A DNA stretch of 64,000 bases. Source: an uncultured archaeon. Lineage in GTDB: Archaea; Asgardarchaeota; Lokiarchaeia; Sigyniarchaeales; SOKP01. The stretch lies in assembly GCA_964632315.1 (NCBI GenBank), contig CAZWEM010000015.1, forward strand, positions 20,521 to 84,520, read 5' to 3'. Of the stretch, positions 1,896 through 63,021 are shown piece after piece (within the stretch, counting starts at the first letter, position 1; every line of letters begins with the position of its first letter). The notes under the pieces were generated by a model, which worked only from the letters and a program-made list of their open reading frames with translations, did not search any database and had not been told where the DNA came from. A program made the translations under genes and the position numbers.

Positions 1896-2777
1896 AATTA
1901 CTGAAAATCCCCCATAATGTAATAAGAGTGATAATATTAACGCATTTTCAATTTTTAATTGTTTATAGGTGCTAATAGAATAAGTTAATATCCATAATGA
2001 CCATGCTTGAAGGAGAATCATGATAATATTGTCCAAAATACTTATTGATGGTAATTCAATTAGGTTTAAAACTCTAAAAGCGTAATGAATTATGAGAAAA
2101 AAGTCTGAGGGAATAAATATAAAAGCAAATGTATTAAAGAATTCTTTTGCATTGTTTTTATTTTTAAAAACTAATCGGATAAGGCCTTCCACTATGAAGA
2201 AGTACACTAAGTAGTTCAATATGAACAAAATTGCCCCTAAGATATTCGTAAACGGTGCTTGAATATTTTCATTATTCGGGAAAGAACTAAATAACAAAAA
2301 AAATGGGAACAAATTAGTTAAATAGCAAAAAACTGCACCAATTACTAAAATCAAAAGGGAAATCATCAAGGGAATAAAATTTAAGGAATTAGAGTTACTA
2401 ATAAATCTCTTTGGAGTAAGATACATTAAAGCTTTCAAAATAGGAGAATTAAATTCTTTGCTTGAAATATCCCTTGTGATATTTATTATATTTTCCTTCA
2501 ATGAATTATACGCGAGTTGACCAAGATCGGTAAGATAATATTTTTTATCACTTTTTTGTTCTATCAGTTGAGACAAAGCATCTAGATGATGATAAATAGT
2601 GCCAGTACTTACCTTCAATTCCTTTTTAAGAATTGTAAAGGAAGAAAAACCGTTGTCACCAATTATTTCTATCATTCTTCTTCTAATTTTATGCCCCAAA
2701 GCGTAATAAAAGTTAGACTCTAATTCTTTCTCTTTACTGGATTGATTATCTTCAGTATTATTTTCTTCCCTACTAAT
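1878..2777 (-). CDS. ArsR-type winged-HTH fused to multi-pass (Yip1-like) membrane domain; probable ATT start at 2777
   Basis: FYYALGHKIRRRMIEII...STGTIYHHLDAL HTH followed by ~5 TM helices. The track start (TTG 2699) cuts into helix 1; the frame is open upstream to an ATT overlapping the TAA of the previous gene. Confidence 0.75.
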   Translation of the reverse strand: MSREENNTEDNQSSKEKELESNFYYALGHKIRRRMIEIIGDNGFSSFTILKKELKVSTGTIYHHLDALSQLIEQKSDKKYYLTDLGQLAYNSLKENIINITRDISSKEFNSPILKALMYLTPKRFISNSNSLNFIPLMISLLILVIGAVFCYLTNLFPFFLLFSSFPNNENIQAPFTNILGAILFILNYLVYFFIVEGLIRLVFKNKNNAKEFFNTFAFIFIPSDFFLIIHYAFRVLNLIELPSISILDNIIMILLQAWSLWILTYSISTYKQLKIENALILSLLLHYGGFSVILTLAI

Positions 2778-3208
2778 TACTCTACATCCCCAATTCTTCT
2801 TTGAATTAAAATGTTCATGATATCCAATAAAACTAAGAGTGCTCCAACAATTGAAAGGTAAAACCCAATCTCTGCAGACCCAATATATGGCAAATCTTGA
2901 GGGATTAATTCAACTAAGAAAATTAAGAAAAATCCCAAACCAATAAAAATTATTATAACAGAATTAACCTTATATTCTCCCTTAAATAATATCAACAAGG
3001 TCCCTACCAATGTGATACTGCCACTGATTAATGGAAATAAAAAAAGAAAAGAATCTTCCAATGAAAACGATATCATAATTAAATAGATACTAAAGAGGGA
3101 TATTCCTGAAAACCATGATAAAAATTGTGAAAGAATCATCAATATTGAGCCAATTATCCCTATAAGCCTTAGATCCAAAAATTTCTTTATCTCCACTGTT
3201 TCCACCAA
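2777..3208 (-). CDS. Small 4-TM membrane protein
   Basis: Four hydrophobic segments; upstream of and coupled to the HTH-membrane gene. Confidence 0.7.
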   Translation of the reverse strand: MVETVEIKKFLDLRLIGIIGSILMILSQFLSWFSGISLFSIYLIMISFSLEDSFLFLFPLISGSITLVGTLLILFKGEYKVNSVIIIFIGLGFFLIFLVELIPQDLPYIGSAEIGFYLSIVGALLVLLDIMNILIQRRIGDVE

Positions 3209-3308
3209 AATAATAAGTTAGATTCAAATAGTATAAAATAACTAGATAATATTAATTTAATTTTGATATAAATTATCAAAAAGCTGAATATTATTAAAAC
3301 TGATTTCT

Positions 3309-4682
3309 ATGAAAAATAATGACGAAGAACAAGCAGATATGGATTCGATCCCTCTCTTCGATTATTTAAAAAAGCAAATTCCAGTCGAAGAAATTAGAGA
3401 TTACGCATCACCTAAACGAATCACTAGTATTGATGTTGTAAAAGGATTTGCAATTATTTTCATCATATTGGCTCATACCGGTGGATCTTGGCTTAATATG
3501 CAATGGAAATTTTTTTATGGTGTTGCATTTGCTTTTTTAGATATATTAGGGCCTTCTCTTTTTGTATTTTTGTCTGCGTTAAGCGTAGTATTTAGCATCC
3601 GGAAAAAACAAGGCAGAGTTCCATATAAGGTGTTGAGAAACGGGATATTAACTAGGGGTTTGATTATCATCATAATTGGAGTAATTTTTAATATCACATC
3701 ATATTCAACTACTGTTAAAGGATACAGTTTTCCTTTTAATTTGTGGGGGTGGAACATACTTTTATTCATTGGTTTTTCCCAGATATTTTCATTATATGCC
3801 TTGAGATTAGGAAAAATAACAAGAAGCTTCATTGGATTGATTATTATCTTTACTAGTGATGCTGTGAGACAATATCTTTATAATCTTAAAGAGTCAGGAG
3901 ATATAATCGGAACCTTTTTGCATTATCTTCTCGTATCACCTGTAGCAATGACTCCTATCATTCCATGGTTATCAATTTGCTTTCTATCGACTATATTTGG
4001 AGAATATCTTTATGAAGCTATGATAGGGGGTAAAAAGCAAGATTATGTCTATCTCTGTCGATTGTTTTTAGCATGGGGAATTATTTTAGTAGGGATTGGA
4101 GTATTTCTTGGTAGAGGGTTATATGTTCCTGGAACGGAATGGATAAACGTAAGCAATGGATCTGTTGGAGTATTGCCCGTAAGCGAATACCCCCATTTAG
4201 ATCTTTTTAGTGTCATTAATTCTCAAGTGTTTTTTCCCCAAATGCGATGGGCTGGTCTATGGGAATTTCTTATCAGGGGCCGAGGCTCAAATATGATATA
4301 CAATCTTGGAGCTGCTTTATTAATTATTGCTATATGGTTTTATATCGTTGATCTGAAAAAGAAGAGCAATATTTTTATTAGCATGTTAAAGTACTATGGT
4401 AAGATCTCTCTAAGTTTATTTTTACTTCATTACATCTTTGTCACATTATTTTACGGATTTTTCGATATTGTATTTTTTATCATTATTTGTCTCGGTTATA
4501 CGGGCTTTTGGGGTTTTCTAATGTATTTATGGAATGAATTTTTTGATGGGAAAGGCTCTCCTGAATGGTTAATGGTTCAAATAGGGCGTATTGGTCAAAA
4601 AACGACCCATACTGTTAAAAAGGAGTTCCATATCATCGAAGAAGAGATCAAAGGGACAGTACAAAAACTAAAAGAGAAATAG
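3309..4682 (+). CDS. Heparan-alpha-glucosaminide N-acetyltransferase-like (DUF1624) membrane acyltransferase
   Basis: RITSIDVVKGFAIIFIILAH motif, many TM helices, YGKISLSLFLLH, SPEW C-terminal motif. Confidence 0.75.
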   Translation: MKNNDEEQADMDSIPLFDYLKKQIPVEEIRDYASPKRITSIDVVKGFAIIFIILAHTGGSWLNMQWKFFYGVAFAFLDILGPSLFVFLSALSVVFSIRKKQGRVPYKVLRNGILTRGLIIIIIGVIFNITSYSTTVKGYSFPFNLWGWNILLFIGFSQIFSLYALRLGKITRSFIGLIIIFTSDAVRQYLYNLKESGDIIGTFLHYLLVSPVAMTPIIPWLSICFLSTIFGEYLYEAMIGGKKQDYVYLCRLFLAWGIILVGIGVFLGRGLYVPGTEWINVSNGSVGVLPVSEYPHLDLFSVINSQVFFPQMRWAGLWEFLIRGRGSNMIYNLGAALLIIAIWFYIVDLKKKSNIFISMLKYYGKISLSLFLLHYIFVTLFYGFFDIVFFIIICLGYTGFWGFLMYLWNEFFDGKGSPEWLMVQIGRIGQKTTHTVKKEFHIIEEEIKGTVQKLKEK

Positions 4683-4811
4683 AACATACAACTTTTGTTC
4701 TTTTTGTCTTTTTTCTGGTCGATCTTTACGATGAAATAATAAATATATAAATATGCTCAATATAATATATCAACTATCAAATAATTAAACATGATTTAAC
4801 GGGTTTTCAAG

Positions 4812-5330
4812 ATTTCTGAAACGTACAAATTCAAAATTACACTTTTTGGCGCTGGAGGAGTGGGAAAAACATCTTTATTGATAAGATACATAAAAGATTA
4901 CTTTAATCCGGACTTAAAACAAACGATTGGTTCCAATTTTCTAATAAAAGATGTTGAACTCGGTGATATTAACGTGCGCCTTCTAATTTGGGATATCGGT
5001 GGACAAGAACAATTTGCTAAACTTAGAACAATTTATTTTAAAGGAAGTAACGGTGCTCTAGGAGTTTATGATTTAACTGAACCTCAATCTTTATTAAAAT
5101 TACCTGGATGGGTTAGTAGTATAAAAAAATCGGTTAAGAAAACCATTCCAATGGTGATTCTTGGGAATAAGAATGACTTAGATAGACAAGTAGAGAAATC
5201 CGAAGCTCAAGACTTATCTAGTCGATTAAATTGTGAATATCTTGAAACTTCCGCTAAGACTGGACAAAATGTCGAAAAAGCATTTGAATACATAGCTAAG
5301 GCTTGCTTAGATCAAGTTCTACAATCATAA
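4812..5330 (+). CDS. Rab/Ras-like small GTPase; probable ATT start at 4812
   Basis: G1 GAGGVGKT (begins upstream of the track GTG at 4860), G2 TIG, G3 WDIGGQE, G4 NKND, G5 ETSAK; in-frame TAA at 4797-4799. Confidence 0.92.
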   Translation: MSETYKFKITLFGAGGVGKTSLLIRYIKDYFNPDLKQTIGSNFLIKDVELGDINVRLLIWDIGGQEQFAKLRTIYFKGSNGALGVYDLTEPQSLLKLPGWVSSIKKSVKKTIPMVILGNKNDLDRQVEKSEAQDLSSRLNCEYLETSAKTGQNVEKAFEYIAKACLDQVLQS

Positions 5331-5945
5331 TTTTATATGATATGTCTTTAATTTCTCAATAAGATCCTCAATATCGACAAATCTAATCGTATTAATTCCC
5401 AACTCGCTAGCAGACCTTACATTATTAAGTCCGTCATCAATAAAGAGTATTTCACTCGCTTGGCATTCTGCTTTATCAATTGCTAATTGAAAAATTTCGG
5501 GATCTGGTTTTGTGAGGTGAACTTCATGAGAAAGAATAAAATCATCAAAAATATCCCAAATATCCCACTTTCTCTTCTTCAAATAATTCCAATGGCTTGC
5601 ATTAATATTAGATATACAAATGAATCTGAAATTGTTTTTTTTTCTAATTTTTTTAATTAAATCTACCATATCTTTATTTAAATCGGAGATTATGCTATTA
5701 AATGCTTTGAAAAAATCTTCTTTATTTAAAGAACAAATTCTTAATAATTCACAGGCTTGCTGATAAAATTCTTCATCACTGATGATTCCTTGATGATACG
5801 TGTCTGACTGTCTAAAGAATTCTAACATTATTGGTGTTTTTGGTTTATTTAAAGGAGAGGGTGTAATTACTTCGTTAAAAAACTGGCTGAAGTCTAAATT
5901 AATGACAACATCTCCAAGATCAAATATAATACATTTTATCTCCAT
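5325..5945 (-). CDS. HAD-superfamily hydrolase (subfamily IA)
   Basis: FDLGDV, ISN, KPDPEIF, FIDD motifs; AGGTGA SD upstream. Confidence 0.9.
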   Translation of the reverse strand: MEIKCIIFDLGDVVINLDFSQFFNEVITPSPLNKPKTPIMLEFFRQSDTYHQGIISDEEFYQQACELLRICSLNKEDFFKAFNSIISDLNKDMVDLIKKIRKKNNFRFICISNINASHWNYLKKRKWDIWDIFDDFILSHEVHLTKPDPEIFQLAIDKAECQASEILFIDDGLNNVRSASELGINTIRFVDIEDLIEKLKTYHIKL

Positions 5946-5957
5946 ATTGAAATCACC

Positions 5958-8018
5958 TTATTTTCTAAAATACACTTTAGTCGAAAACTTTCGTAAAGGA
6001 ACGGGTAACTTATATTTAGGATAGTTCTGAGCATCTTGATCAAGAAACTCCAATAATTTACTTAATTTTACATTATTGAATTGTTTTGAAGTCGCTTTCT
6101 TAGGACCGAATGACTCTCCAATAAGCCTTTTTCTAATAGAGATTGCTTGATTCTCTTGCTCTTTCCGACCAATTATTATGACATAAGGTATCCATTCTAC
6201 TTCTGCTTGTCTAATTTTTTTACCAATCGTTTCATTTCGATCATCAAAATCAACTCTATAAGATTCTTTCGTAAGGATCTGCAGAATTTTTTCAGCATAA
6301 CTATTTTGATCATCACTTATTGTTAAAATTCTTACCTGAATTGGGGATAACCACGTTTTAAATCCTGGAACTATCTTATCTTTATTTCTAATAGCTGTTT
6401 CAATTAATCCCCACAATATTCTCTCAATCCCTCCCGTTGGAGAGTTATGCAAGATAATAGGATATTTTACTGAACCATCTTCATCAACAAATTTTATATC
6501 ATATTTCTGCCGCTTCTTTCCATCTTTATCATACATGAATTCCAATGAACTTTCGACATCAATTTGATTTGTAGCTAAAGTGGCCGTTCTATTTTGAGCA
6601 GATAAAACGGTTTTCTCGAATTTTAAAATGAAATAATAATATCTATCTTCCCATAATTCGATTAAAGCTGCTTTATTTTCTGATTTTAGAAGATCAACGA
6701 TCCAACCTTTATTCTCATCATAAAAATCTTTAGTCATTCTAAAAACAATATTAGATTCAACTCCTAAATCCCTTTCAAGCCGTCTTATCAAATCGTACTG
6801 CAGTTTGAATTCTTCAATTGCTGATTCCATATCTTTGCAGAGCGTATGAAGATCTGGCATGATAAATCCCCTTAACCTTCTTAATCCACTTAGTTCTCCT
6901 TCTTGTTCTCGTCTGAAATCATACTGTTCGAACTCATATAATCTTAGGGGGAAATAACTTGGTTTTAAATTCATTTTGCTTACCATGTCAAATAATAAAA
7001 AGTCAGATGCAAATCTTAATAGATATCTATCATTTCCAGATTCAACCCAGTAAGTTCTGGCTGGAAATCTTGCCGTTTGAGCGGTTAGTTTTTTATTTTT
7101 AACCGTATACATTATAGGAGTGTCAACAAGTAAAGCACCATAATCAATTAGGCGTTCTTCGATATAATTCTTTATAATATTTCTCATCATCATTCCCTTG
7201 GTATACCACCGGAAAATACCCTTATCACTATTCGGATCGAAATCAACTAATTCTAACTCCTTCATTACAGCTATATGAACTGGTTCTTCTGATTTATCAG
7301 CTCTCCTAGATCCTAATTCCGATTTTATAAATAAGAAAAAATCCTCATCATCAAGAGATTTTAACGGTCTAATGGTCTCATCTTTATTATACTGTATCGG
7401 TTCCTCCTCTCCAGAAGGGAGTAAGACTTTAAATTCTGCATTCATAATGTGTTCTTCTGGTTGAATATATAATTTGACATCTCGATACATTTCTGCAACT
7501 TCATGACCAATGCAATTTACTTTAAAAGATTTGTACCATCCAAAAGGAGAATAACTTGCTTCAATGCCTCTTTCCTTTAAGAATTCAGCGATTTTGGGAC
7601 ACACATCCATTGCGCTATCATCACTGCTTAAAAACTTACTTAAATGAGCCCAAGGATAGACTAATACCTTATCGACATGATACATTTCTCTCTCTTTAAT
7701 GAGTTCTTTTAATTTTCTAAGTTTTCCTTTAATTTTTCCTAACTCAATCTCCTTATTATGGACTCTAATTTCCTCGTTTTTCAGCTGAATTTTCTCTGGA
7801 AAACTTGAAATTTGGATTATTGCATCTTCTATAACATCTGCTCCTTGTTTAGCTATCAAGTCAATATCATACGTATCTTGATCTTCAACAGAAATGTAAG
7901 CGATGAGTATTAATCCATCCAATTTAATTATCTTATCGGGGAATTCTTGAGGGTTACTTGTAGCTTCCTTATTTTTCACAACTTCCACTCCATTGGAGTG
8001 AATCAATAACATCTTCAT
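5958..8018 (-). CDS. thrS: Threonine--tRNA ligase, archaeal type with N-terminal editing domain
   Basis: LVYPWAHLS, PFGWYKSFKVNCIGH editing domain; FRREQEGELSGLRRLRGFIMPDLH; GGIER; WLSPIQV anticodon domain. Confidence 0.96.
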   Translation of the reverse strand: MKMLLIHSNGVEVVKNKEATSNPQEFPDKIIKLDGLILIAYISVEDQDTYDIDLIAKQGADVIEDAIIQISSFPEKIQLKNEEIRVHNKEIELGKIKGKLRKLKELIKEREMYHVDKVLVYPWAHLSKFLSSDDSAMDVCPKIAEFLKERGIEASYSPFGWYKSFKVNCIGHEVAEMYRDVKLYIQPEEHIMNAEFKVLLPSGEEEPIQYNKDETIRPLKSLDDEDFFLFIKSELGSRRADKSEEPVHIAVMKELELVDFDPNSDKGIFRWYTKGMMMRNIIKNYIEERLIDYGALLVDTPIMYTVKNKKLTAQTARFPARTYWVESGNDRYLLRFASDFLLFDMVSKMNLKPSYFPLRLYEFEQYDFRREQEGELSGLRRLRGFIMPDLHTLCKDMESAIEEFKLQYDLIRRLERDLGVESNIVFRMTKDFYDENKGWIVDLLKSENKAALIELWEDRYYYFILKFEKTVLSAQNRTATLATNQIDVESSLEFMYDKDGKKRQKYDIKFVDEDGSVKYPIILHNSPTGGIERILWGLIETAIRNKDKIVPGFKTWLSPIQVRILTISDDQNSYAEKILQILTKESYRVDFDDRNETIGKKIRQAEVEWIPYVIIIGRKEQENQAISIRKRLIGESFGPKKATSKQFNNVKLSKLLEFLDQDAQNYPKYKLPVPLRKFSTKVYFRK

Positions 8019-8138
8019 GATAAACTCTCTTATATGTATCTAAAACCATTAAAATATAAAAAATTCTAAATAGTCTACTTACTTTTGATAATTATCAGCA
8101 TTTCAAATTAATTATCACTAAAATATTTATCCATTAGT

Positions 8139-8762
8139 ATGAGTCTTAATAATATTTTCTCCGAACTGACGGAGTATTTAGACAAATTAGATAAAATTAG
8201 AGAACATATTTTAAAGATTTCTCGAGAAATCGTACGTGATTGTAGTATTGCCATAAAAAATTCACATCGTAATGAAGATCAAGATTTCATTGAAAAAATG
8301 AGTCAAGTAAAAATTAAACACGAGGAACTAATGGGTTTAGTTGACGAAGAACCAGGATTTTTTGCTAAATACTTAAAGGTACCAGAACAAGAATACGTTG
8401 AAGCAATTATATTAAACTCAATAATTCACAATAGGAGCTATCCCTCTCCAAAAGAATTAAATGTAAATCCGTTGCACTATGCTCTTGGATTAACGGATGT
8501 CATTGGAGAACTAAGAAGATACATTTTAGATAATATTGGTGATTCAAAAATTCAAGATCTAAGAAAGATTTTAGAAAATATGGATGAGATCTACACTTAT
8601 CTTTTTTCAGTGGATTATCCCTCAGGATTGACACAAGATTTAAGACATAAAACTGATATTGCAAGAAATATCATTGAAAAGACTAGAGGAGATGTCTCAA
8701 TCACATTACAAATGAATGAACTGAAAAATTGTATTGAACATAATATCCAGCAAAAAGAATAA
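8139..8762 (+). CDS. Translin/TRAX (C3PO) family endoribonuclease
   Basis: REHILKISREI, QEYVEA, YALGLTDVIGELRR, LRHKTD motifs; acidic catalytic residues retained. Confidence 0.9.
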   Translation: MSLNNIFSELTEYLDKLDKIREHILKISREIVRDCSIAIKNSHRNEDQDFIEKMSQVKIKHEELMGLVDEEPGFFAKYLKVPEQEYVEAIILNSIIHNRSYPSPKELNVNPLHYALGLTDVIGELRRYILDNIGDSKIQDLRKILENMDEIYTYLFSVDYPSGLTQDLRHKTDIARNIIEKTRGDVSITLQMNELKNCIEHNIQQKE

Positions 8763-8802
8763 ATTCAGCAAATCTAATAAAAAAAAGTTTGATGATGGAC
8801 AG

Positions 8803-9240
8803 ATGGTTAAAAAAGTACTTATTGCTGGGACTTTCGATTTAATACATCCAGGACACTTATTCTTAATTAATGAAGCTGCAAAATTAGGGGATGTGTATGT
8901 TGTGGTAGCAACAGACAAGAATAGAAAGATTTATTCTGGTGAATTTCCAATCGTCCCTCAAGAACAACGTTTAGAAGTTGTTAGAAACATTAAAAATGTG
9001 AAAGTGGCGAGAATTGGACGAAATGATAACAATACTCTTAGGACTGTAGAGGAGATAAATCCAGATATCATTTTACTTGGTCCTGATCAGAAATATGAGA
9101 TTAATGTTCTCAAGCAAGGTTTGAAAGAAATCGGTTTAAATAAAATTGAGGTTAAGCGTTTAAATACTTATTATGATAAATTTCCTCTTCATTCCTCAAG
9201 ACTCATTAAAAAGAAAGTTATCGAACGATATAAGGAATAA
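8803..9240 (+). CDS. ribL: FAD synthase (archaeal cytidylyltransferase family)
   Basis: GTFDLIHPGH, PDIILLGPDQ, SSRLIK; adjacent to ribK; ATG 8803 preferred over overlapping TTG 8734. Confidence 0.85.
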   Translation: MVKKVLIAGTFDLIHPGHLFLINEAAKLGDVYVVVATDKNRKIYSGEFPIVPQEQRLEVVRNIKNVKVARIGRNDNNTLRTVEEINPDIILLGPDQKYEINVLKQGLKEIGLNKIEVKRLNTYYDKFPLHSSRLIKKKVIERYKE

Positions 9241-9245
9241 AACAA

Positions 9246-10582: not shown

Positions 10583-10603
10583 TTTATATTGGACAAATTA
10601 ATT

Positions 10604-11398: not shown

Positions 11399-11515
11399 AG
11401 TGAAATCTTAAAATTCTTTTCATTTTTAAGTTATAGTTTATTATAACATAATATATCTTATTTATATTTATAATTCTAAATTAGTCTAAAGCATCAATTA
11501 TCGGTGATATTTCAT

Positions 11516-11740
11516 TTGAAGTTGCGATTAGTGTTTAAAACTAAATCTAAAAGGAATAAGGTTGTTACTCTAAAAATTCACATCGCACCTTCGAAACATT
11601 TAGGTTTCATAAATTTTGTAAATCTTGCTCTTAATCAAAGCAAACCAGTTAATTTATGTATTGAAAAAATCGGAGACTCAGGAGAGATAGAACGGATTGG
11701 AATCGAGGGTTTTTTTGAATTTCAATCCAAGGGGGTTTAA
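11516..11740 (+). CDS. Small basic hypothetical protein, paralog A of tandem pair
   Basis: GGTGA SD then TTG 11516 (MKLRLVFKTK); clearly alignable with next gene. Confidence 0.75.
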   Translation: MKLRLVFKTKSKRNKVVTLKIHIAPSKHLGFINFVNLALNQSKPVNLCIEKIGDSGEIERIGIEGFFEFQSKGV

Positions 11741-11745
11741 AACAA

Positions 11746-23536: not shown

Positions 23537-23715
23537 TGTGTCTTACTCTTACAAAAATATCCTATATTTCTAAGAGAAAAAAAATAAAAATCAACTCTCC
23601 TCACTTTCACTTAAATATAGTTTTTAAGGATAATAGAAAACCAGCCCCGAGTTTTTTTTTAAATAATTTACTTGTCTTTCATTCTATAAATCGAATTTCA
23701 TCGAAGTGAACACAT

Positions 23716-24045
23716 ATTTCTAAAGGATTTGTAAAGAACGAGATTTATACTGGTATCGTTGAAAAAGAAAAATCACTTGAAAATGTAGTTCAATTAGAAA
23801 ATGGTGAAATTCGATTAAAATTTAATTCTTCAGAATCAACTATAAGTGAAAACTCAGTAGTTAAAAAATGTGATGAAATTAAGAAAGATTACATGCTAAT
23901 GATCAATGATGTTCACGAATTGCTTCAAAATTATGAGAAATTATCTAATGAAGAGAAATTGGAATATTGTAACAGTGAACGATACCTTATGAAGATGTAC
24001 TTAAGGCATGCCTTAATTAAAATTAATAAATGCTTTCCAGAATGA
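23716..24045 (+). CDS. Hypothetical 109-aa protein absent from ORF track; probable ATT start (xSKGFVKNEIYTGIVEKEKSLE...ALIKINKCFPE)
   Basis: 110-codon stop-free frame filling an otherwise empty gap; in-frame TGA three codons upstream inside AAGTGA SD-like motif; first ATG is codon 60. Confidence 0.7.
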   Translation: MSKGFVKNEIYTGIVEKEKSLENVVQLENGEIRLKFNSSESTISENSVVKKCDEIKKDYMLMINDVHELLQNYEKLSNEEKLEYCNSERYLMKMYLRHALIKINKCFPE

Positions 24046-31698: not shown

Positions 31699-31803
31699 TG
31701 ACCCGGGGGGGATTTGAACCCTCGATATCTGGCTCCGCAAGCCAGCGCCCTATCCATTCTAGATTCAAAGATATTTTCTTTGATTTAACTAGACTACCGG
31801 GTC
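31699..31803 (-). tRNA. tRNA-Arg(GCG) with 30-nt D-loop intron (31757-31786)
   Basis: Acceptor GACCCGG/CCGGGTC-A; anticodon arm CTGGC-TTGCGGA-GCCAG; T-arm GAGGG-TTCAAAT-CCCCC; BHB-like intron. Confidence 0.93.
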
Positions 31804-32621: not shown

Positions 32622-32903
32622 TTATGGATAATCTGGTTTGTTAGACACTAGAGTCGTTGTTTCTTCGATCCATTTACTTATTTCTTCATCCATTCGGATA
32701 TAGGCAATTATCTTGTCTAATTCCTGTTTTTTAGTAAAGGAACATTCAACAACAACATCCCATCCTCCATAAACAGGAGTCGCATAAGTTACCATCCAAT
32801 CTTCATCATCTTCAACTGATTTTAAGTTTTTGAGCTTATTGACGACTTTCCATTCAAATCCAATTTTCTTCAGTCGAATAAAGATATATCCTCGGAAATA
32901 GAT
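32622..32903 (-). CDS. Stand-alone Lrp/AsnC ligand-binding (RAM) domain protein, 93 aa, absent from ORF track; probable ATC start
   Basis: xYFRGYIFIRLKKIGFEWKVVNKL...TPVYGGWDVVVEC...WIEETTTLV matches RAM domain pattern; GGTGA SD 6 nt before ATC; in-frame TGA three codons upstream. Confidence 0.8.
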   Translation of the reverse strand: MYFRGYIFIRLKKIGFEWKVVNKLKNLKSVEDDEDWMVTYATPVYGGWDVVVECSFTKKQELDKIIAYIRMDEEISKWIEETTTLVSNKPDYP

Positions 32904-39799: not shown

Positions 39800-39903
39800 T
39801 GGGAGGGGAGGGATTCGAACCCCCGACCACTTGGCCCCCAGCCAATTCGATCCAGTTTAAAGACAATAAACTGGCGTATCATACCAAGCTAGACCACCCT
39901 CCC
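39800..39903 (-). tRNA. tRNA-Pro(GGG) with 30-nt intron at 27/28 (39846-39875)
   Basis: Acceptor GGGAGGG/CCCTCCC-A; after splicing anticodon arm CTTGG-CTGGGGG-CCAAG; T-arm GGGGG-TTCGAAT-CCCTC; BHB-like intron. Confidence 0.93.
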
Positions 39904-42771: not shown

Positions 42772-43278
42772 CTAAGAAATTATAATATCGATTTTTTGAA
42801 CTTCATTTTCAAAATAAATAAATCCATTTATATCGTAATTTGTGGCATCAATTATTAGCCAAATTAGATTTTTAAAAGCCTTACTCGTATATTTACTTGT
42901 TTTTTCACTAAAATGATCCAGAAATGTCATATTATTTATATCCACTGAACTAGGATAGTTTCCCGATGGATGAGAATGAAAAATGCTAATTAATTGAGCT
43001 TTTTGAGTTGCGGATTGAATTTCTTCCATTATTATAGCATTTAATCTTTCCATATTTCTCATCAAGAAAGACACGGCTGAATTTTGATCAGATGGTATAC
43101 ATCTAGCTTTATTACCAATGTAATGATAAGAATAGTCATTATTGCGATAAATTTCTTCAATAGAGCCAAATATGAGACCGCAACACTCGTTTGGAGATGA
43201 TGAGTCAACACATGTTTTTAAATCTTCAACAATAAGAGCGTTTAAAACGCATTTAATATCTTTGAGCTTTTTAATGAT
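42772..43278 (-). CDS. JAB1/MPN (JAMM) metalloprotease, 168 aa; probable ATC (43278) or ATT (43275) start
   Basis: PNECCGLIFG (catalytic Glu) lies upstream of the track GTG 43074; HSHP..YPS..D JAMM motif; in-frame TAA directly before ATC. Confidence 0.88.
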   Translation of the reverse strand: MIKKLKDIKCVLNALIVEDLKTCVDSSSPNECCGLIFGSIEEIYRNNDYSYHYIGNKARCIPSDQNSAVSFLMRNMERLNAIIMEEIQSATQKAQLISIFHSHPSGNYPSSVDINNMTFLDHFSEKTSKYTSKAFKNLIWLIIDATNYDINGFIYFENEVQKIDIIIS

Positions 43279-49135: not shown

Positions 49136-49162
49136 TAAAAGTAAATATTTAGATGAAGGATA

Positions 49163-54031: not shown

Positions 54032-54038
54032 AGAAAAA

Positions 54039-57000
54039 TTATGAAATTTTTTCTTCCTTTTTCTTTTTAAATAGAAGATAAGTGAGTAGTATAAATGCTA
54101 TTATAAGAGCAATTATAAAGATGGACGGATTTTGACCTGTCATCATAAAAATATAATAAGAAATGGCAAACAATGAAGCGAAAAAGCTTAAAATTCTCCC
54201 ATACTGTCCAACAAAAATTTTCATGCGACTCATAATCCTCTGAAGCCTAAAATTCATCTTATTCATGACTTCTAATTCTTCTTCATTAAGTTGTTCTAAA
54301 GCCTTTGGATCTTCGTAATAGATCCCTAATCGAGGATCGTATACTCCTTTAAGTTTTCCTGAGCTAATCAAGGAAATCAAGTATTTTTGTATTTTTTGTT
54401 TCTTAATTTTTAATTCACTTTGTAGAAAACTTACCGTTAACATTTTGAATGCAATTGCTTTAATTGCCATTTGAACATATGCTTGAAGAATTTGCTCTTC
54501 AGAAGATTTTACTTTCTCAATAACAATCTCTTTGAATTCTTTAATAAATAATTCGAAATTCTTTATTAGATGCTTATTTTTAGTTTCAAAATTGTTTGAA
54601 AATTTGTTAAACTCTCGTATACTATAATTTATCTTTTTATTTGATTCTTTAATTGCAACTTCAATGTCTTTTTCTCTTTTTTTTATTTTTACAAATGCTT
54701 TCTTGAATTGTTCCGTTTCGATATAATCTTCTACTCGTGATTGTAGAGTTCCTAATAGTTGACTTAAATGAACTTTTTCTTTGTTTATCCTTTCCAATAA
54801 TTCAGAACGATAAGTTTCAAACTTTAATGTATCTATCCTAAGATCTATTTGCTTTACTAATTTTTCATAAATTTTATTAAAATCTTGTTTTTTCTTTACA
54901 TAGTATTCTCTTATCTCAGTTTCAAATTTTTGAATTTCATTCGTTTTATTAAATCTAATTCTAAGTTCTTCTTCTATTTTCTCTTGAGTATTTGCTATGA
55001 GATGCTCAACTCTTTCTTTCCTTGTCTTGAATGACTCAAATAATTTCTGATAAGAGTTTGTTTTACTTGAATCCTCTAGGAATTTTTGCAATGATTTCTT
55101 TAATGAGATCTCAAGGGCATCAAATTCGTTATCTATAAAATTGACTAATTCTAAGAATAAATATAAATTTGCTTCTATTTCTTTTACAGCAACTTTATTT
55201 ATTTTGAGTGTATTGCTGAGTTGATGCTGTAACTCTTTAATTTCAAGTCTTTCTGAATCTATTGAAAGATGTTCGACTCTTCTCTTAAAATCTTCCATTA
55301 ATCTATTATCAAATCCAGAAAAGTCGGAAATTCTATTTTGAATTTCAAGTAAATTTGTTCTTAAAGTTCTTTTTTTAATACAAGAATCGTGGAGTGCAAG
55401 AAATTTCCCAATTGATTCTTGAACATTTTTTAGCAGTTTCTTTTCAACAAAATTTCTTAATTCTTTGAATTTATAATAATTTTCTGTAAAAACGATAATT
55501 TGTTTCTCTCCCTCAATCAATTCCGCTTGTAATTTAGAAACTTCTATTAAATCTCTGATTCTGGGGATTATGTATTTACATTTTAAATCTATTCGGTCAG
55601 ATAACTCTTTTATACTAATTTTATCACTTTTAGTCTCGTTTGTTAGAACTGAAATTTCATCTGCTATGATTTGATTTATACTCTTTTCTCGTAATTCTTT
55701 TATATCATTCAGATATGATTCTTTAAATTTTGCCCATTGGATGATATTTATCGAACTATCATCAAATCCATCAATTATATTTTCAAGATTTTTGACTTTC
55801 TTCGAAAACTTCTTATCAACAATTTCAAAATCGTTAATCATTTTTTCAATTTCGCTTGTTACTTCATCTATACTCTTTTTCTTTGCCTGAATTAATGTGA
55901 TATCAAATTCTGATATTCTATTTTTAAATGATTGAACATTTTTTGAGATAAACTTGTCAAGGTCCTCTATCTTAACCCGATTTCTCTCTTCAACAACATT
56001 TTCTTGTAAAGACTGCCGTTCCTGCGCAATCATTTCAAGCAGATCTTCATCAACTTTTTCAATCATATCTTCTAAATGACGATATAAAGAGATTAATTTT
56101 TGACGATTCTTAATCTCCTTTTTTATAATCGTATTTAACTCCTGAATTTCCTTTCTTTCTTTTTCAAAAAGTTGATCAGATAGCATTTTAATTGCTTCTG
56201 AGGCTTGTTTAAACTTATTATCATTAATTAATGTCTCAGTATTATCTCTAATATCATTTATTTCATTTTTAGTATTTTGACTTATCAGAACTATTTTTTC
56301 TCTAGATTCATTAAAGAATTGGAAACCTGATGCGTAGTAACTAAAAGAGGAATCAAAATTCGATTTGATTTTTAACCAATTATCAATAACTGCCTTGTGT
56401 TTCTTAGTTATTTTTTTATCTTTAGATGTAATTTGCTGGGATACTTTATATATTGTCTGATCATAGGTATTGATTTTTTGGGAAATTTTCATCAAATTGC
56501 TTGTTATCAAATCAAATTTGGAGTCATCATAGCTAGATTCGAATAATTTAATTATATCATTTCCGAAAGAACTCAATTTCTTTTTTACATTCTCTTCCAA
56601 TTCAATAATCTTAGACTCTAATTCATCCAAAATCAAATGAAAGTTTCTTAATTCTTCTTTAGCATTGATTCTTTCTAGCAAGTAATTCTCAGTCTCAGCT
56701 AATCTTCTTTGTAAGGCAGAGTATAACTTGTTCCAAGTTGAAATTTCATTATTAAGTGAAGCTTGAAGATTTATGTATGTAAGATTTTCATTAAATGAAT
56801 TCTCTATATTTTCATTTAAAAAGTCAGCTTCCATCAAGCTATCTCTTATTAAATACTTTAAACGCTGACGGGCATAGTTTATTTCATCAATTAGCAGGTA
56901 AGATTCGATTTCCTCCTTTATATTCTTTATAGTGATATTTAATTCTAATGTCATGTTAAAGATATCATTTTTAATGTCCTCTAACTTTAGTTTTTCTTCA

Positions 57001-58490
57001 TAAATTTTCTCAGTATTGATTAAAGTATCTGAAATTATAATCTTTTCAAGGATGAAATCTAAGTAAAAATAATACTTTGTTTTTAACGTAAATCCTCTTT
57101 TTGTTCTAATATTTCCTTTGAAGAAATTTTTATCAATTAAATTATTGATAATTGGAATTATATCTTCTCGTAGTTTGAGGCTTTCATTTTTTCTCTTCAT
57201 CTTTTTGTATATATCTGATAAAGATACTATACTATTATCGTGAATTTGTTTATAGAATTCTCTCATGTATAATTTTTCTCTTTCTCCCAATCTGGAGAGG
57301 AAAATTTGAAATTCAGTATCATTATTGATTATTTTTAGGTTAAAAGTATAACTAAGGTTCAGATATAAAATTATTTCATCAATTCCATGAACTAAACCAA
57401 ATGAATTTTCAAGTTGCTTAACATCAATATATTCCTGTCTTTCTAATTGATTAAATAGTAATCTTTCAATGTGTTCAATAAATTTCTTCCAGATCACGCA
57501 TAAGATGATAATTAATTTAGAAATTTGGGGAAGGTATTTACTTAAGTTTGTGACATTATCTACCAATATATCTTGTAACTTCTTATTTATAAATGAATAA
57601 ATTCCAACTGGATTATAATCCAATAACCAAGAATATGCTTCTAAAACATTTACAGCCCAGAAAGTTTCATCAATCTGGCTGTCTCCTTTTTCTAAACTGA
57701 AACCACCGTCATCTTTCTGATTCTGAAGTAGAAAATCCAAATCCTTATCTCTTATTTCAGAGTCTAAATCGAGATATTTCAAGCACAAAAATTTAGTAGA
57801 GATATTCGAATCTTTTTTGAGATCTTTGATTATATTACGGTATTGATCTTGGTAGATTCGCACGTCAATTCCTATTAATGTGAAGATCTCAAAAACAAAG
57901 AATATTGTCTTTGAATACTCTTCCTTCTTGTGGCAATTTTTTTCTAAACAATGTAAATACTTATCATTTTTCTTATGAGCATTAATAAAATTTATCAACT
58001 TTCTCTCCCAAGTATCATTTAACTTTGTCAATCTATATTCTTTCAAGTTTCCTGACAAATTTAAACATGAAATTGCATAATAAGTGGACCAGATACTAGG
58101 TAATTTATCTGAATCAGGAGAAATTTTAAAAGCTAGTTGATCTCGTTCTATATATTCTACTTCACAATTTTTTATAAACTCATAGATTGCATCTTTATTG
58201 TCATCCAATTTTTCTCTTAAATACTTCTTCATCAAAAGATACCAATATAAGTCTTTTAAAGTAAATTTGGAATCGAGAAATATAGTTTCCTTTAAAGAGC
58301 TAATAAAGTCTTTGATTTTGTCGTATTCCTTTAAATAAAAACTCTTTACATTTTTGCTTGGAACTAAAGAAAATGACTTATAAGGTTCTTTTTTAAACTC
58401 TGTTATGTAAGGATAAGCAAATTTCTCTTCAACATTTGTCAATAATCGTAACCCACGAGTTATTTTTGATACTAATGAAAATAAGACCAT
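54039..58490 (-). CDS. 1483-aa protein: prenyltransferase/squalene-oxidase-repeat-like N-terminus, long coiled coils, wH/PCI-like domains, two C-terminal TM helices
   Basis: FLLQNQKDDGGF...ETFWAV and STYYAISCL repeats; heptad K/E-rich middle; LISSGKLKGVYD; C-terminal TM hairpin plus KKKK. Confidence 0.65.
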   Translation of the reverse strand: MVLFSLVSKITRGLRLLTNVEEKFAYPYITEFKKEPYKSFSLVPSKNVKSFYLKEYDKIKDFISSLKETIFLDSKFTLKDLYWYLLMKKYLREKLDDNKDAIYEFIKNCEVEYIERDQLAFKISPDSDKLPSIWSTYYAISCLNLSGNLKEYRLTKLNDTWERKLINFINAHKKNDKYLHCLEKNCHKKEEYSKTIFFVFEIFTLIGIDVRIYQDQYRNIIKDLKKDSNISTKFLCLKYLDLDSEIRDKDLDFLLQNQKDDGGFSLEKGDSQIDETFWAVNVLEAYSWLLDYNPVGIYSFINKKLQDILVDNVTNLSKYLPQISKLIIILCVIWKKFIEHIERLLFNQLERQEYIDVKQLENSFGLVHGIDEIILYLNLSYTFNLKIINNDTEFQIFLSRLGEREKLYMREFYKQIHDNSIVSLSDIYKKMKRKNESLKLREDIIPIINNLIDKNFFKGNIRTKRGFTLKTKYYFYLDFILEKIIISDTLINTEKIYEEKLKLEDIKNDIFNMTLELNITIKNIKEEIESYLLIDEINYARQRLKYLIRDSLMEADFLNENIENSFNENLTYINLQASLNNEISTWNKLYSALQRRLAETENYLLERINAKEELRNFHLILDELESKIIELEENVKKKLSSFGNDIIKLFESSYDDSKFDLITSNLMKISQKINTYDQTIYKVSQQITSKDKKITKKHKAVIDNWLKIKSNFDSSFSYYASGFQFFNESREKIVLISQNTKNEINDIRDNTETLINDNKFKQASEAIKMLSDQLFEKERKEIQELNTIIKKEIKNRQKLISLYRHLEDMIEKVDEDLLEMIAQERQSLQENVVEERNRVKIEDLDKFISKNVQSFKNRISEFDITLIQAKKKSIDEVTSEIEKMINDFEIVDKKFSKKVKNLENIIDGFDDSSINIIQWAKFKESYLNDIKELREKSINQIIADEISVLTNETKSDKISIKELSDRIDLKCKYIIPRIRDLIEVSKLQAELIEGEKQIIVFTENYYKFKELRNFVEKKLLKNVQESIGKFLALHDSCIKKRTLRTNLLEIQNRISDFSGFDNRLMEDFKRRVEHLSIDSERLEIKELQHQLSNTLKINKVAVKEIEANLYLFLELVNFIDNEFDALEISLKKSLQKFLEDSSKTNSYQKLFESFKTRKERVEHLIANTQEKIEEELRIRFNKTNEIQKFETEIREYYVKKKQDFNKIYEKLVKQIDLRIDTLKFETYRSELLERINKEKVHLSQLLGTLQSRVEDYIETEQFKKAFVKIKKREKDIEVAIKESNKKINYSIREFNKFSNNFETKNKHLIKNFELFIKEFKEIVIEKVKSSEEQILQAYVQMAIKAIAFKMLTVSFLQSELKIKKQKIQKYLISLISSGKLKGVYDPRLGIYYEDPKALEQLNEEELEVMNKMNFRLQRIMSRMKIFVGQYGRILSFFASLFAISYYIFMMTGQNPSIFIIALIIAFILLTYLLFKKKKEEKIS

Positions 58491-58615
58491 TTATTTTTTT
58501 GTACTTGAATAACAAATCATATTTTTTTCAATCAAAAAAATTCCAATAACTCTTTAATTTTCATAATTTCAATTAAATAATATATCTGAAAAATTATATT
58601 CTTCTCATACTCAAA

Positions 58616-60103
58616 ATGAGTTTCTTAGCAATCGATTTAGGTACTCAAAGTATCAGAGCGGCAGTTGTAGATAAAAAAGGACAAATTAAAACCCTTTCTC
58701 AGATGTCTCAAGATGTTGATTCCCCATACCCGGGATGGGCTCAACAAATGCCTGAAATATGGTGGAAGCTTACAAAAGAAGTGATTAAACAAACTGTTCA
58801 GCAATATAAGAAAAAAAGCAAGATTAATGAAATTGAGGGAATTTGCACGTGCGGCCAGATGCATGGTCCAGTAGGAATTGATCAAAATGGGAATATTACC
58901 ACTAAATGGACTCAAATTTGGATGGATAAGCGTTCTGAAACTATTTGTCAGATGATAAGAAATAATTACGATGAAATTAAATTAGCGAAGATTTCAGGAA
59001 ATCCAATAACCACCGGATGGCCTGGAGTTAAGATAAGATGGATAAAAGACAATCAAAGAGAACTATATGAAGCCACGGAGTACTTTCTTGTCCCTAAAGA
59101 TTTTATAAATTATAGATTGACTGGAATCGCAGCAACCGATCATAGTGAAGCATCTGGAACCTATTTATACGATGTAAATGAAGAAAGATATTCAAAAACA
59201 ATGGAAAAGGTATTAGATGTCGATTTAAAGAAGTTTGCCCCCATCCATGAATCCTATGATATAATAGGAAACTTGAAACCCAATATTGCACGAGACTTGG
59301 GACTCCCTATCGAATTACCAGTGATAGCAGGTGGCGGAGATTTTATTGTTTCATTGCTTGGTATTGGCCTCGTAGATAGTTCTACTGCAGTTGATATGAC
59401 CGGTACGAGCACGTTACTCGTAGTATATAAGAATAAGCCTATTTTAGATCCAGCGATCCAAAATTTACGCCACGTGATAGGTGGATGGATTCCGTTTACT
59501 ATGCTTGATTGTGGTGGCCTTGCTATAAAATGGTGCAAAGATCTGCTAAACTCAATAAATAATATTAATCATTCTTATGAACAAATAATCAAAATTGCAA
59601 GTCAAGCACAAATAGGTAGTGAAGGATTACTTTTTTATCCATACCTATTAGGAGAAAGGAGAAAAGACAATGTTTCGGCTCGGGGAGCTTTTTTCAATTT
59701 AAGCATAACGCATCAAGCGAAACATTTTTGTCGATCGATAATGGAAGGTGTAGCTTTGGCGTTAGGCAGAGACATCGCACACTTTAGAAATCTAGGAATC
59801 GATCTCAAAAAAGTAGTTTGTTTAGGTGGAGCAACACGTAATAATTTTTTATATCAAATAAAAAGTAATGTTACGAATCTGCCACATTATATCACGAATC
59901 AACCCGAATCGAGTTTAAGTGGTTGTGGTATCCTAACTGCCTATGCTTTAGGAAAGATTGATGATTTCGAGGAAATTAAGGTGAATCATCCTTCTCTAAT
60001 TATCAAACCCGAAGACTCCGTAGTACTAAAATACAACACGATTCAAAATGAATTTAACCGCATGTATGAGCATATGTTAGGTTATTGGAATAAAAAAACT
60101 TAA
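58616..60103 (+). CDS. FGGY carbohydrate kinase (xylulokinase-like)
   Basis: IDLGTQS, GQMHG, WMDKR, PKD, GGD, GTS, PYLLGER, MEGVA. Confidence 0.92.
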   Translation: MSFLAIDLGTQSIRAAVVDKKGQIKTLSQMSQDVDSPYPGWAQQMPEIWWKLTKEVIKQTVQQYKKKSKINEIEGICTCGQMHGPVGIDQNGNITTKWTQIWMDKRSETICQMIRNNYDEIKLAKISGNPITTGWPGVKIRWIKDNQRELYEATEYFLVPKDFINYRLTGIAATDHSEASGTYLYDVNEERYSKTMEKVLDVDLKKFAPIHESYDIIGNLKPNIARDLGLPIELPVIAGGGDFIVSLLGIGLVDSSTAVDMTGTSTLLVVYKNKPILDPAIQNLRHVIGGWIPFTMLDCGGLAIKWCKDLLNSINNINHSYEQIIKIASQAQIGSEGLLFYPYLLGERRKDNVSARGAFFNLSITHQAKHFCRSIMEGVALALGRDIAHFRNLGIDLKKVVCLGGATRNNFLYQIKSNVTNLPHYITNQPESSLSGCGILTAYALGKIDDFEEIKVNHPSLIIKPEDSVVLKYNTIQNEFNRMYEHMLGYWNKKT

Positions 60104-61176
60104 AAAAAGATCTCTTTAGCTATTTGCCCAATAGGCCTAAATACTTTAAGATCTCCATCCCAATCTTTCAAAACATTACCGTATGTTTGTTCTATTTTAT
60201 CTATGAAATTTTTAAGCAGAATTTGTAGAGAGACAAGATTTTCTTCGGATATCAGAGTTCCATAGATATATTTTCCCGGATGAATGGTGATATGCTTACC
60301 CTTTTTCTCAATGAATGAGGTGGTTTCTTTTTTACTAACCGTTTCAAGCATCATTTTTAATGAAGTTAATGCGCCAGAAGTTGCTGAATCATAGTAAGTA
60401 TCTCCAGGCTTAAAAGATCTTTCGAAAATCAATAAACCAGATTTATGAATAATGAAAATACTATCGATTTTTTGTTGCCAATTATATTCTGAGAAGGATG
60501 GAATTGAAGAAAAATAAAAGTACAAAAAGAATAATGCTAGAAGTTGGAATAAGTCGCCTATCAATCTACTACCTAAACCAAATAAATTGATCGAAAAATC
60601 GATTGTTAAGCCAAACCCTATTATTAAGAGAGAAATACCAGCAAAAAGCTTTATCAGATGCTTATTATAATTTCCCAGAATAGGATTTTTTTCAAAAATT
60701 GAATTTAATTCTTTGGAGTAGTAAATAAAAAATGTTATGAAAATTGCAAAAAATATAGGTGATAAAATTTGAGTAATACTAATATCGATTAATGATAGAA
60801 TAGCAAAAAATATTAAATATATGACAAAAATTATTGAAAAGAGAAATTTTCTTTTGAAAATTTTATATTTTTCTATAATAAATATAAAAATGAATGCGCA
60901 GATTGCTAAAGACATGTATCCTAAGTTTAAACATATGATCCGGAGAGAGGAATCGACCACATAATAGTCACTAATAATGAAAAATAAGATCGTAGTTGAA
61001 TATCCTAAAAATACCCAGAAGTACGCTTTTTCCTCAAGCCTCTTAACATTTCTTTTATTTTTCACTACTTTATTCATAAATATTAGAGCTATTTCTAGTG
61101 AAAGCAAACAGATTAAACTTTCAAGAATGACTAACCACTGAGCTAGACTGCCTGTCAAGGGGAATTGTACTATCAT
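60100..61176 (-). CDS. 7-TM membrane domain fused to C-terminal longin-like domain
   Basis: Seven hydrophobic helices by eye; IFIIHKSGLLIFERSF, SGALTSL, WDGDLKVF. Confidence 0.75.
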   Translation of the reverse strand: MIVQFPLTGSLAQWLVILESLICLLSLEIALIFMNKVVKNKRNVKRLEEKAYFWVFLGYSTTILFFIISDYYVVDSSLRIICLNLGYMSLAICAFIFIFIIEKYKIFKRKFLFSIIFVIYLIFFAILSLIDISITQILSPIFFAIFITFFIYYSKELNSIFEKNPILGNYNKHLIKLFAGISLLIIGFGLTIDFSINLFGLGSRLIGDLFQLLALFFLYFYFSSIPSFSEYNWQQKIDSIFIIHKSGLLIFERSFKPGDTYYDSATSGALTSLKMMLETVSKKETTSFIEKKGKHITIHPGKYIYGTLISEENLVSLQILLKNFIDKIEQTYGNVLKDWDGDLKVFRPIGQIAKEIFF

Positions 61177-61192
61177 GTAAATATCTCGCTTT

Positions 61193-62311
61193 TTAGGATT
61201 TTATTAATAAATTATCAATTTCTTCTTTGAATTTATCAAAAATAATGTTTTCCCTTCCTTCTATAGCTTCTATATCATTCAATAGAAGTTTAAAGCGGTT
61301 TTGAAAGAGTTTTTGAAGCACTTTTAGGAAGAAAGTCATGCTAACCATATCATCATCAACAATTATACAAAATATTAGTGATTCTAAACCATTAGTTCCA
61401 TAATTGAAAATCATGATTTGATCTTCTTGATTTATCCTCTGGATTTTATCTCCCTTAGTTTTTGTAATTAAGGAGATAATACTCTCTATTCCAATCAATC
61501 CTCTTGAAAAAAAGACGTTCTTATCGGACGACGCTTCGACTATTTCACTTGATTTAGTTCTAAAATTATAATTGTAGATTAGCTTAAGTCTTTTTTTATC
61601 AATTACATAGAAACTATCCAAGTTTTCTTGCCATTTAAATTCCAAAAAAACAGGAAAATCATAAAATGCATAAAAAATGATTAATTGACCAAGTATTATC
61701 AATGGAGTAAAAACATTTCTCGCCAATAACTGACCCTCAGGAGTAAATAAATACGGATCTTTCTCTGTTCCGAAAACAATACCAATAACTACCAATAATT
61801 CCCCTATAAATAAGATAAGTATTCTTACCTTAACGTTTCCAGTTGCATTTTGAATTAAAATCACGTGAAAGTATATCATAAAAATTACACCAATTAGTAT
61901 TGAAGAAAAGATAACAAGATTTTTCAATACCTCATCTTCAATCAGCATAATCAAAATCGAAGCTACAAAAGCGATTATGATTATGATTCTAATAATTGTA
62001 CTATTTAACAAGCTCTTGAAATCTTTTAAAGAGATTATCAGTAGAAATGATATAGCAGCAATAGAGATTAATATATGAGAGGCATTATTTAGAATAATAT
62101 TGAATGCTAAATCATTTACGAAATAACTATTAAAAGCTCTTACTACAATTCCAGTAAATCCAAATCCATATAACAATCCAAATGCTATAAGAAATTTATT
62201 TAATCCTAGATTTTCCTTTCTGATTTGATAATATTTATAGAATAAATAAAAACACATTTGATAAGTTAATGCTAGGATAATGAACAACAGCGGTAGATAA
62301 AAATCTATCAT
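61193..62311 (-). CDS. 7-TM membrane domain fused to C-terminal longin-like domain (paralog)
   Basis: Seven hydrophobic helices; P.F.EF.WQ linker shared with the neighbour; FYVID...LIYNYNF, SRGLIGIESII. Confidence 0.7.
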   Translation of the reverse strand: MIDFYLPLLFIILALTYQMCFYLFYKYYQIRKENLGLNKFLIAFGLLYGFGFTGIVVRAFNSYFVNDLAFNIILNNASHILISIAAISFLLIISLKDFKSLLNSTIIRIIIIIAFVASILIMLIEDEVLKNLVIFSSILIGVIFMIYFHVILIQNATGNVKVRILILFIGELLVVIGIVFGTEKDPYLFTPEGQLLARNVFTPLIILGQLIIFYAFYDFPVFLEFKWQENLDSFYVIDKKRLKLIYNYNFRTKSSEIVEASSDKNVFFSRGLIGIESIISLITKTKGDKIQRINQEDQIMIFNYGTNGLESLIFCIIVDDDMVSMTFFLKVLQKLFQNRFKLLLNDIEAIEGRENIIFDKFKEEIDNLLIKS

Positions 62312-62487
62312 GACTTAGGTCAATTATAATTATACGACTTAATAAATTTTATTTAATACGCAATTTAATCATCTATTTTTTTTTTGTACACAAAAGTTTT
62401 TCTAATAAAGGTTAAAATATAGTTGCGTTATTAATTATAAAGTATATTCTATCCAAAATTATCATTTTTTAGTTTGAGGGGTTTAAC

Positions 62488-63021
62488 ATCTCAATAGATC
62501 TTGCTTTTAAAATTTGCGTTTTTGGAGATTCGGGTGTGGGTAAAACCTCTCTTATTTCTCGTTTTTTGACAAAAGGTTTCGACCCAAATATTGGACAGTC
62601 AATGGGAGTTGATATTAGAGCAAAAACAATGGATATTCAAAATTTAAAGGTAAACCTCCAAATTTGGGATTTTGTTGGTCAAATTGAATTTCGGAATGTT
62701 CTTTTAAATTACGCGAGAGGAGCTGGCGGGGGTATCTTTGTGTATGATATCACTAATAGCTCCAGCATGGAAAATATCAATCAATGGCTTGGGTTATTCA
62801 AAGAAAAATTAGCTGAATGGAAAAAAATTCCTATAATTATCGCAGGAAATAAGTCTGATCTCTCTGCTGAAAGAGAGGTGTCATCTGAAGATGTATTCAA
62901 AATTTCGGAAGATCACGTAATACATGAATTTTTAGAATGTTCGGCTAAATCTGGATTTAATGTAGAGAAGTTGTTTAGTAACCTATGTATAGAAATAATG
63001 CGTCGATCTAATTTTATGTGA
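62488..63021 (+). CDS. Rab/Ras-like small GTPase; probable ATC start at 62488
   Basis: FKICVFGDSGVGKT (upstream of track GTG 62536), WDFVGQ, NKSD, ECSAK; GAGGGG SD; in-frame TAG at 62470-62472. Confidence 0.92.
   Translation: MSIDLAFKICVFGDSGVGKTSLISRFLTKGFDPNIGQSMGVDIRAKTMDIQNLKVNLQIWDFVGQIEFRNVLLNYARGAGGGIFVYDITNSSSMENINQWLGLFKEKLAEWKKIPIIIAGNKSDLSAEREVSSEDVFKISEDHVIHEFLECSAKSGFNVEKLFSNLCIEIMRRSNFM

Follow-up and report, generated by a model that had tools for sequence, protein, structure and literature searches.

AUU start codons, and autoregulation by the factors that guard initiation fidelity, are known in bacteria and eukaryotes. ATT, ATC, ATA and CTG appear as alternative initiators in NCBI translation table 11, and animal mitochondria use AUU, AUC and AUA (together AUH) as starts. 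Apparent AUH initiation is described here from a stretch of 64,000 nt (the window) on contig CAZWEM010000015.1, part of a 4.45-Mb metagenome-assembled genome (MAG) of 33% GC from an uncultured lokiarchaeon. The codon set read as start Met is the same as in animal mitochondria, but its user is a free-living archaeon with a 4.4-Mb genome, of a lineage that has kept the initiation factor aIF1, and not a reduced organelle. Initiation at AUH sites is very likely to be real in this genus of the Lokiarchaeia (Promethearchaeia). Most likely about 5% of its genes start at AUU, AUA or AUC and roughly 0.5% at each of ACG and CUG. The pattern, its conservation, the interchange with ATG at start columns, the stronger Shine-Dalgarno (SD) motifs and the AUH start of the aIF1 gene in relatives are documented by comparison of genomes.

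Bacterial infC, encoding IF3, has an AUU start and is subject to translational autorepression (PMC3326321, PMC4705826). There, as would be the case in the relatives of this lokiarchaeon, the gene of a fidelity factor starts at the codon class that the factor rejects. The differences are that the factor here is aIF1 (SUI1 family), that AUH starts are not confined to a few genes but make up about 5% of the total, and that the feedback is predicted from sequence. In eukaryotes, eIF1 is autoregulated through the poor context of its own AUG (PMC3326321); the factor is orthologous and its gene has a conserved weak start in both cases. The eukaryotic weakness lies in AUG context and acts with scanning, whereas here a non-AUG codon is positioned by SD. 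Each of these two factors, IF3 and eIF1, represses initiation at the weak start of its own gene (PMC3326321).

Archaeal reviews give only AUG, GUG and UUG as starts (PMC7531240). Archaeal initiation at these codons, with proofreading by aIF1 (PMC7531240, PMC6237735), involves the same factor and is likewise led by SD, weaker codons going with stronger SD. The basic loop of aIF1 binds 30S in Pyrococcus (PMC6237735), and Sulfolobus aIF1 discriminates against AUU in vitro (PMC4705826). In Haloferax ribosome profiling, near-cognate putative starts were set aside as possible false positives (PMC7261190); here, by contrast, conserved genes offer no main start other than AUH in their sequence. A literature search, with most subscription journals outside its coverage, found no paper on genome-wide AUH use or on an AUH-started aIF1 in Asgard archaea.

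Six apparent AUH start sites in the window

Six genes of the window appear to start at ATT or ATC:

1878..2777, minus strand: gene for an ArsR-like winged-helix protein, 299 aa (helix-turn-helix matches weak); ATT start at 2777, GGGGA at 2791-2787
4812..5330, plus strand: gene for a Rab/Ras-like small GTPase, 172 aa (Pfam Ras, E 1e-47); ATT start, GGGT at 4801-4804
23716..24045, plus strand: conserved gene of unknown family, 109 aa; ATT start, GAAGTGA at 23703-23709
32622..32903, minus strand: gene for an Lrp/AsnC ligand-binding domain, 93 aa (atlas feature match 0.96); ATC start as assembled (doubtful), GGTGA at 32914-32910
42772..43278, minus strand: gene for a JAMM/MPN+ protease (Pfam Prok-JAB); ATT 43275 start, ATC 43278 alternative, AAGGGA at 43287-43282
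62488..63021, plus strand: gene for a second Rab/Ras-like small GTPase, 177 aa (Pfam Ras, E 2e-40); ATC start, GAGGGG at 62476-62481

In-frame stops lie 5, 3, 3, 1 and 6 codons upstream of 4812, 23716, 32903, 43278 and 62488, respectively. The frame of 2777 is open for 44 codons upstream, with no ATG, GTG or TTG among them. The first ATG, GTG or TTG is codon 27 at 2777, 17 at 4812, 60 at 23716, 37 at 32903, 68/69 at 43278 and 17 at 62488. The codons, upstream stops, SD-like motifs and first canonical codons agree with the preliminary description of the window, as do Ser at codon 2 in four of the six genes and the overlap of the ATT at 2777 with the TAA of the upstream gene. A GGGGA 9 nt upstream of this ATT was found besides.

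A start at the first canonical codon would cut the P-loop of both small GTPases (in each the first GTG, codon 17, lies within it) and remove the N-terminal Glu of the JAMM protease and the first conserved residues of the winged-helix protein. It would cost the Lrp-type domain 36 of its 93 residues and the 23716 protein 59 of its 109. The start is forced and aligned to the ATG of orthologs at 4812 and in the JAMM gene, and forced and conserved as AUH at 2777 and 23716. At 62488 it is forced with no close ortholog, and at 32903 it is ambiguous. The alignment of these codons with ATG starts, a check named in the preliminary description, is seen for 4812 and the JAMM gene; at 2777 and 23716 it is AUH itself that is conserved, and the 32903 column has ATG, ATC or ATT.

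The same codon and spacer are present in independent assemblies, with coding DNA 83–99% identical, at 2777, 4812, 23716, 43275/43278 and 62488. The sequence is real, and not an assembly error, at these five of the six sites; 32903 is unconfirmed. Genus orthologs back four of the five (2777, 4812, 23716 and 43275), 62488 being without a close ortholog.

At 2777, ATT follows a GGGA or GGAG motif by a few nt in 16 of the 17 genus orthologs (three of these also have an upstream TTG), and the other one has ATG. AUH is kept there although the downstream residues diverge. The same ATT is found in three independent contigs, where the protein is annotated as 265 aa. The 4812 ATT is present in four independent contigs, and orthologs of this GTPase start at ATT, ATG or TTG. 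In a complete single-contig genome (G038; loci L030 / L157) the ortholog has a forced ATT behind GAGGAG.

The 23716 protein is conserved, with ATT in 26 and ATA in 4 of 30 genus loci, mostly 2–3 codons past a stop; one locus has an in-frame ATG two codons upstream. The model described below gives the ATT a posterior of 0.98. An antisense gene as the source of this conservation was rejected, there being no rival antisense open reading frame (ORF). A start at an out-of-frame ATG, GTG or TTG inside the SD, followed by a frameshift, was dropped, as it has neither an SD of its own nor a shared slippery site. A feature-atlas search gave no usable match for this gene. The leader (23690-23725, plus strand; L310, L313, L318 and L321) has unusually high conservation at the nucleotide level, and in several orthologs a 7-bp hairpin is predicted to pair the SD motif with the ATT start itself. 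This hairpin is a candidate translational switch.

The start of the JAMM gene is most likely ATT 43275 rather than ATC 43278. The conserved N-terminal Glu and HSH motif are intact, and the Glu would be dropped by a GTG start at codon 68. The orthologs mostly have ATG, the letters of the window are identical in two independent contigs, and the model posterior is 0.98. For the 62488 GTPase the posterior is 0.92 and the letters are identical in one independent contig, annotated as 161 aa. No close ortholog of this GTPase was found in the genus; the best is 50% identical and has ATA behind an SD.

AUH starts leave public databases with cut-off or missing proteins, as had been anticipated for standard annotation. 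The database form of the 32903 protein is a truncation of 57 aa and that of the 62488 GTPase has 161 aa. The NCBI form of the 4812 GTPase is 156 aa long, and 14 of the 15 members of its cluster are 138–156 aa and cut at or after the P-loop. The 23716 gene is uncalled in public contigs. Public Lokiarchaeia proteomes thus lack the N-termini of eukaryote-like proteins, and some genes altogether.

Start codons across the genome and its relatives

The genome-wide rate was estimated with a start-site mixture model of 3383 genes, in which upstream and N-terminal signals are trained on ATG starts only and 61 sense codons compete. The model assigns 76.6% of starts to ATG, 10.1% to TTG, 3.5% to GTG, 2.8% to ATT, 1.6% to ATA, 0.7% to ATC, 0.6% to ACG and 0.5% to CTG. 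Every other codon is at 0.33% or less (AAA, AAT, TTA, GTT, AAG and AGG at 0.16% or less), and the codons picked are exactly ATG and seven with a single mismatch to it. The AUH total is 5.1% (bootstrap 4.2–6.4), about 1 in 20 genes, and exceeds the GTG rate. The preliminary figure of roughly 1 in 10 is thus too high. Its set of ATT and ATC stands for both codons and is too narrow, since ATA belongs to it and ACG and CTG reach about 0.5% each. In the window 6 of 61 genes have AUH, which is above the genome rate yet compatible with it (binomial P = 0.09). The model unaided chose four of these six sites; 32903 is below its length cut and 2777 was misplaced owing to the overlapping gene. These rates would widen the archaeal start set from AUG, GUG and UUG to AUH, in a lineage close to eukaryotes.

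The same model gives 5.3% AUH in a second genome and 6.1% in other loci of the genus. Other Loki families have 1.7–2.3%, close to noise, and the ribosomal regions of non-Loki Asgard archaea 0.2%; these samples over-represent ribosomal operons, and there AUH is rare (1/119 and about 5/101), in this genus as well. AT-rich Firmicute controls have 0–0.5%, against 0.8–5.8% in subsets of this genome of the same size, although it weighs against the comparison that the controls are small (86–183 genes) and have a much stronger SD of their own. A crude count of SD enrichment per codon gives a weak ATH signal of 1.4–1.6x, as every Ile codon near a stop is counted. A strict pairwise test among 236 orthologs finds about 5 AUH and 1 CTG forced starts, which is a lower bound. 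Three of the 38 small GTPases in the genome have no canonical start, two of them in the window. The AUH genes are functionally mixed throughout the genome and are therefore not one regulatory class. Of the earlier proposal, the recurrent habit is supported by the ortholog columns, the genome-wide estimate and the truncated database proteins, and the single regulatory class of starts is not.

Start columns were compared in 80 ortholog families of the host's family, using rows in which no other ATG, GTG or TTG is available. At the ATG column these forced rows have ATG 531 times, TTG 41, GTG 9, ATA 8, ATT 6, ATC 6 and CTG 4; nearly all of the eleven left over are the 4812 GTPase misaligned by one codon beside its ATT. 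At internal Met columns the commonest replacement is TTA (342, against 254 for ATA and 224 for ATT). This indicates that the swaps at start columns are not amino-acid substitution. AUH starts are found in single relatives for the ribosomal proteins uL6, uL14, eS4, uL22 and uS14, which argues against pseudogenes.

Ribosome-binding sites at AUH starts have normal spacing and are stronger than those at ATG starts. The upstream G count is 3.2 at AUH and 2.25 at ATG columns. In the 32903 family the mean SD pairing energy is -2.3 kcal/mol for ATG, -5.9 for ATC and -7.2 for ATT; these kin are not independent, and the anti-SD used is the archaeal consensus, as the 16S rRNA of the host is not assembled. 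Genome-wide class means of SD strength are inflated by posterior-based selection.

Most ATH rows outside Loki in ribosomal regions are antisense shadow ORFs. A forced ATC behind a G-run SD is seen for uS3 in a non-Loki Asgard genome (G065, family f12; L188), so that by its sequence AUH initiation is also present outside the Lokiarchaeia.

The aIF1 gene and the proposed feedback

In 31 genomes from 12 genera of the host's family the aIF1 gene starts at ATT (25), ATA (4) or ATC (2), and never at ATG. In 24 of these genes there is no ATG, GTG or TTG option, and one frame has none of the three throughout. Elsewhere in Asgard archaea aIF1 starts at ATG, GTG, TTG, CTG or ATA. Outside the host's family the starts at L201, L206, L207, L216, L218 and L352 appear to be ATA or CTG, and many others are GTG or TTG; it may be that aIF1 genes with a weak start are common throughout the Asgard archaea.

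aIF1 was not found in this genome, and its neighbouring genes are absent as well, which fits an assembly gap. It was found in 117 of 131 genomes of the order, and the basic loop (RKWG) and the ELQG motif are kept in Loki. Relaxed fidelity through loss of aIF1 was rejected on these grounds. The aIF1 of Loki families f1 and f2 (L231-L260), which often ends in a basic C-terminal tail, has K-A-K and CASGG in place of the K-L-K and CACGG of most other Asgard archaea.

Initiator tRNA was not found in this genome or in the loci of relatives that were compared, and a pattern search for it gave no match. Many tRNAs of this genome carry introns at non-canonical positions, and the 'Ile(TAT)' calls look like mis-parses.

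It is proposed that SD pairing to 16S rRNA would hold the weak AUH codon in the P site, where ordinary Met-tRNAi would accept the third-position mismatch, so that the protein would start with Met at a lower yield. aIF1 would still reject AUH, and because its own gene starts at AUH a feedback loop like that of infC would arise, holding stringency at a permissive level. For this part, rejection by aIF1 together with feedback through its own start, the chances appear evenly balanced. A wider claim, a little less probable than that, is that the Lokiarchaeia of this family have a set of AUH-started genes tuned by aIF1: through the AUU start of its gene the factor would hold down its own production and, in doing so, co-regulate about 5% of the proteome. 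IF3 autorepression and eIF1 autoregulation would then be linked by an archaeal case. As aIF1 is fixed on an AUH start, it can be tested directly whether archaea, like bacteria and eukaryotes, have feedback on start-codon stringency.

Alternative explanations and accompanying observations

It weighs against the feedback step that it rests on relatives, neither aIF1 nor initiator tRNA being assembled here. The strongest alternative is that AUH starts are real but drift neutrally under AT pressure and have no regulatory role, aIF1 included. This has a substantial chance of being correct, although one that falls somewhat short of that of the wider claim above. The low GC of the genome and the mixed functions of the AUH genes are in its favour, as is the flipping of starts among ATG, TTG and ATH in orthologs of 4812, 32903 and the JAMM gene. 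Drift does not readily account for aIF1, which is never ATG in the 31 genomes yet switches among ATT, ATC and ATA, nor for 23716 and 2777, which hold AUH while flanking residues diverge; shared ancestry weakens these counts. On the reading favoured here, two classes may be distinguished: sporadic tolerated swaps (4812, the JAMM gene, ribosomal proteins) and conserved weak starts (aIF1, 23716, 2777). Most AUH starts would be tolerated drift, and a few would be kept by selection.

AUH starts could also be real and due to a changed apparatus, such as a modified C34 in the initiator tRNA or an altered aIF2 or ribosome, or to mRNA editing, in place of SD anchoring with a normal Met-tRNAi and aIF1 feedback. 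Loki aIF1 scores below most other Asgard groups on Pfam SUI1, with changes peculiar to its lineage in helix 1 and ahead of the GG motif, and third-position mismatches outnumber CTG and ACG. These points favour such a change, which is nevertheless unlikely, as aIF1 has retained its RKWG and ELQG motifs, and AUH needs a stronger SD and is rare in ribosomal operons, which is what would be expected if initiation still discriminated against these weak codons. No archaeal precedent is known for the editing of three different codons to AUG.

It is improbable to a much greater degree that a nearby canonical codon is the start, whether a GTG or TTG within the G-rich motif or one lying downstream, possibly with a leaderless mRNA, and that the ATH is an ordinary Ile. 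Where the start is forced, any codon further upstream lies beyond an in-frame stop, and with a downstream start the GTPases would have a cut P-loop, the JAMM protease no N-terminal Glu and aIF1 a cut zinc knuckle. The forced start columns also lack the Leu and Val codons by which Met is typically replaced at internal columns. The evidence for a nearby start comes from aIF1, where 7 of the 31 genes have an in-frame GTG four codons ahead of the ATH, and from 32903.

The 32903 start column has ATG at 8, ATC at 11 and ATT at 11 of 30 loci, and nothing else. Relatives 98% identical to the window have three T in a homopolymer where the window has four, and this brings a GTG, three codons upstream, into frame. 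In two further close lineages the ATC is replaced by TTC. GTG probably serves as the start in this clade of close relatives, so that any ortholog row whose SD motif contains a GTG of this kind is ambiguous. The window may have its ATC through an indel artefact, or the ATC may represent a local variant. Of the six starts first described, five thus stand, and 32903, with its possible 1-nt indel, is doubtful. Elsewhere in the genus the gene has ATT without an alternative start. TTC as a start codon was rejected, as it is never forced and has no enrichment in the start-site model. The divergent glutamyl-tRNA synthetase gene (33025, plus strand) starts at TTG in close relatives as well as in the window.

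Assembly or consensus errors, or dying genes that have lost their ATG, can be dismissed almost entirely: the MAG has 8.6% contamination and 32903 differs by its one T, but errors are refuted for the five sites identical in independent assemblies, and AUH persists across orthologs with intact proteins, including single-copy aIF1 and ribosomal proteins.

Two genes elsewhere in the genome, an EF-2-like gene on contig C25 and one on contig C1, have an in-frame stop right before a conserved stretch. This suggests a frameshift, a split gene or an intron, and one of them is likewise broken in a relative (G018). Two intron-bearing tRNA genes of the window (39800-39903 and 31699-31803, both minus strand) have introns at non-canonical positions and were mis-typed by ARAGORN; by eye they are probably Pro(GGG) and Arg(GCG).

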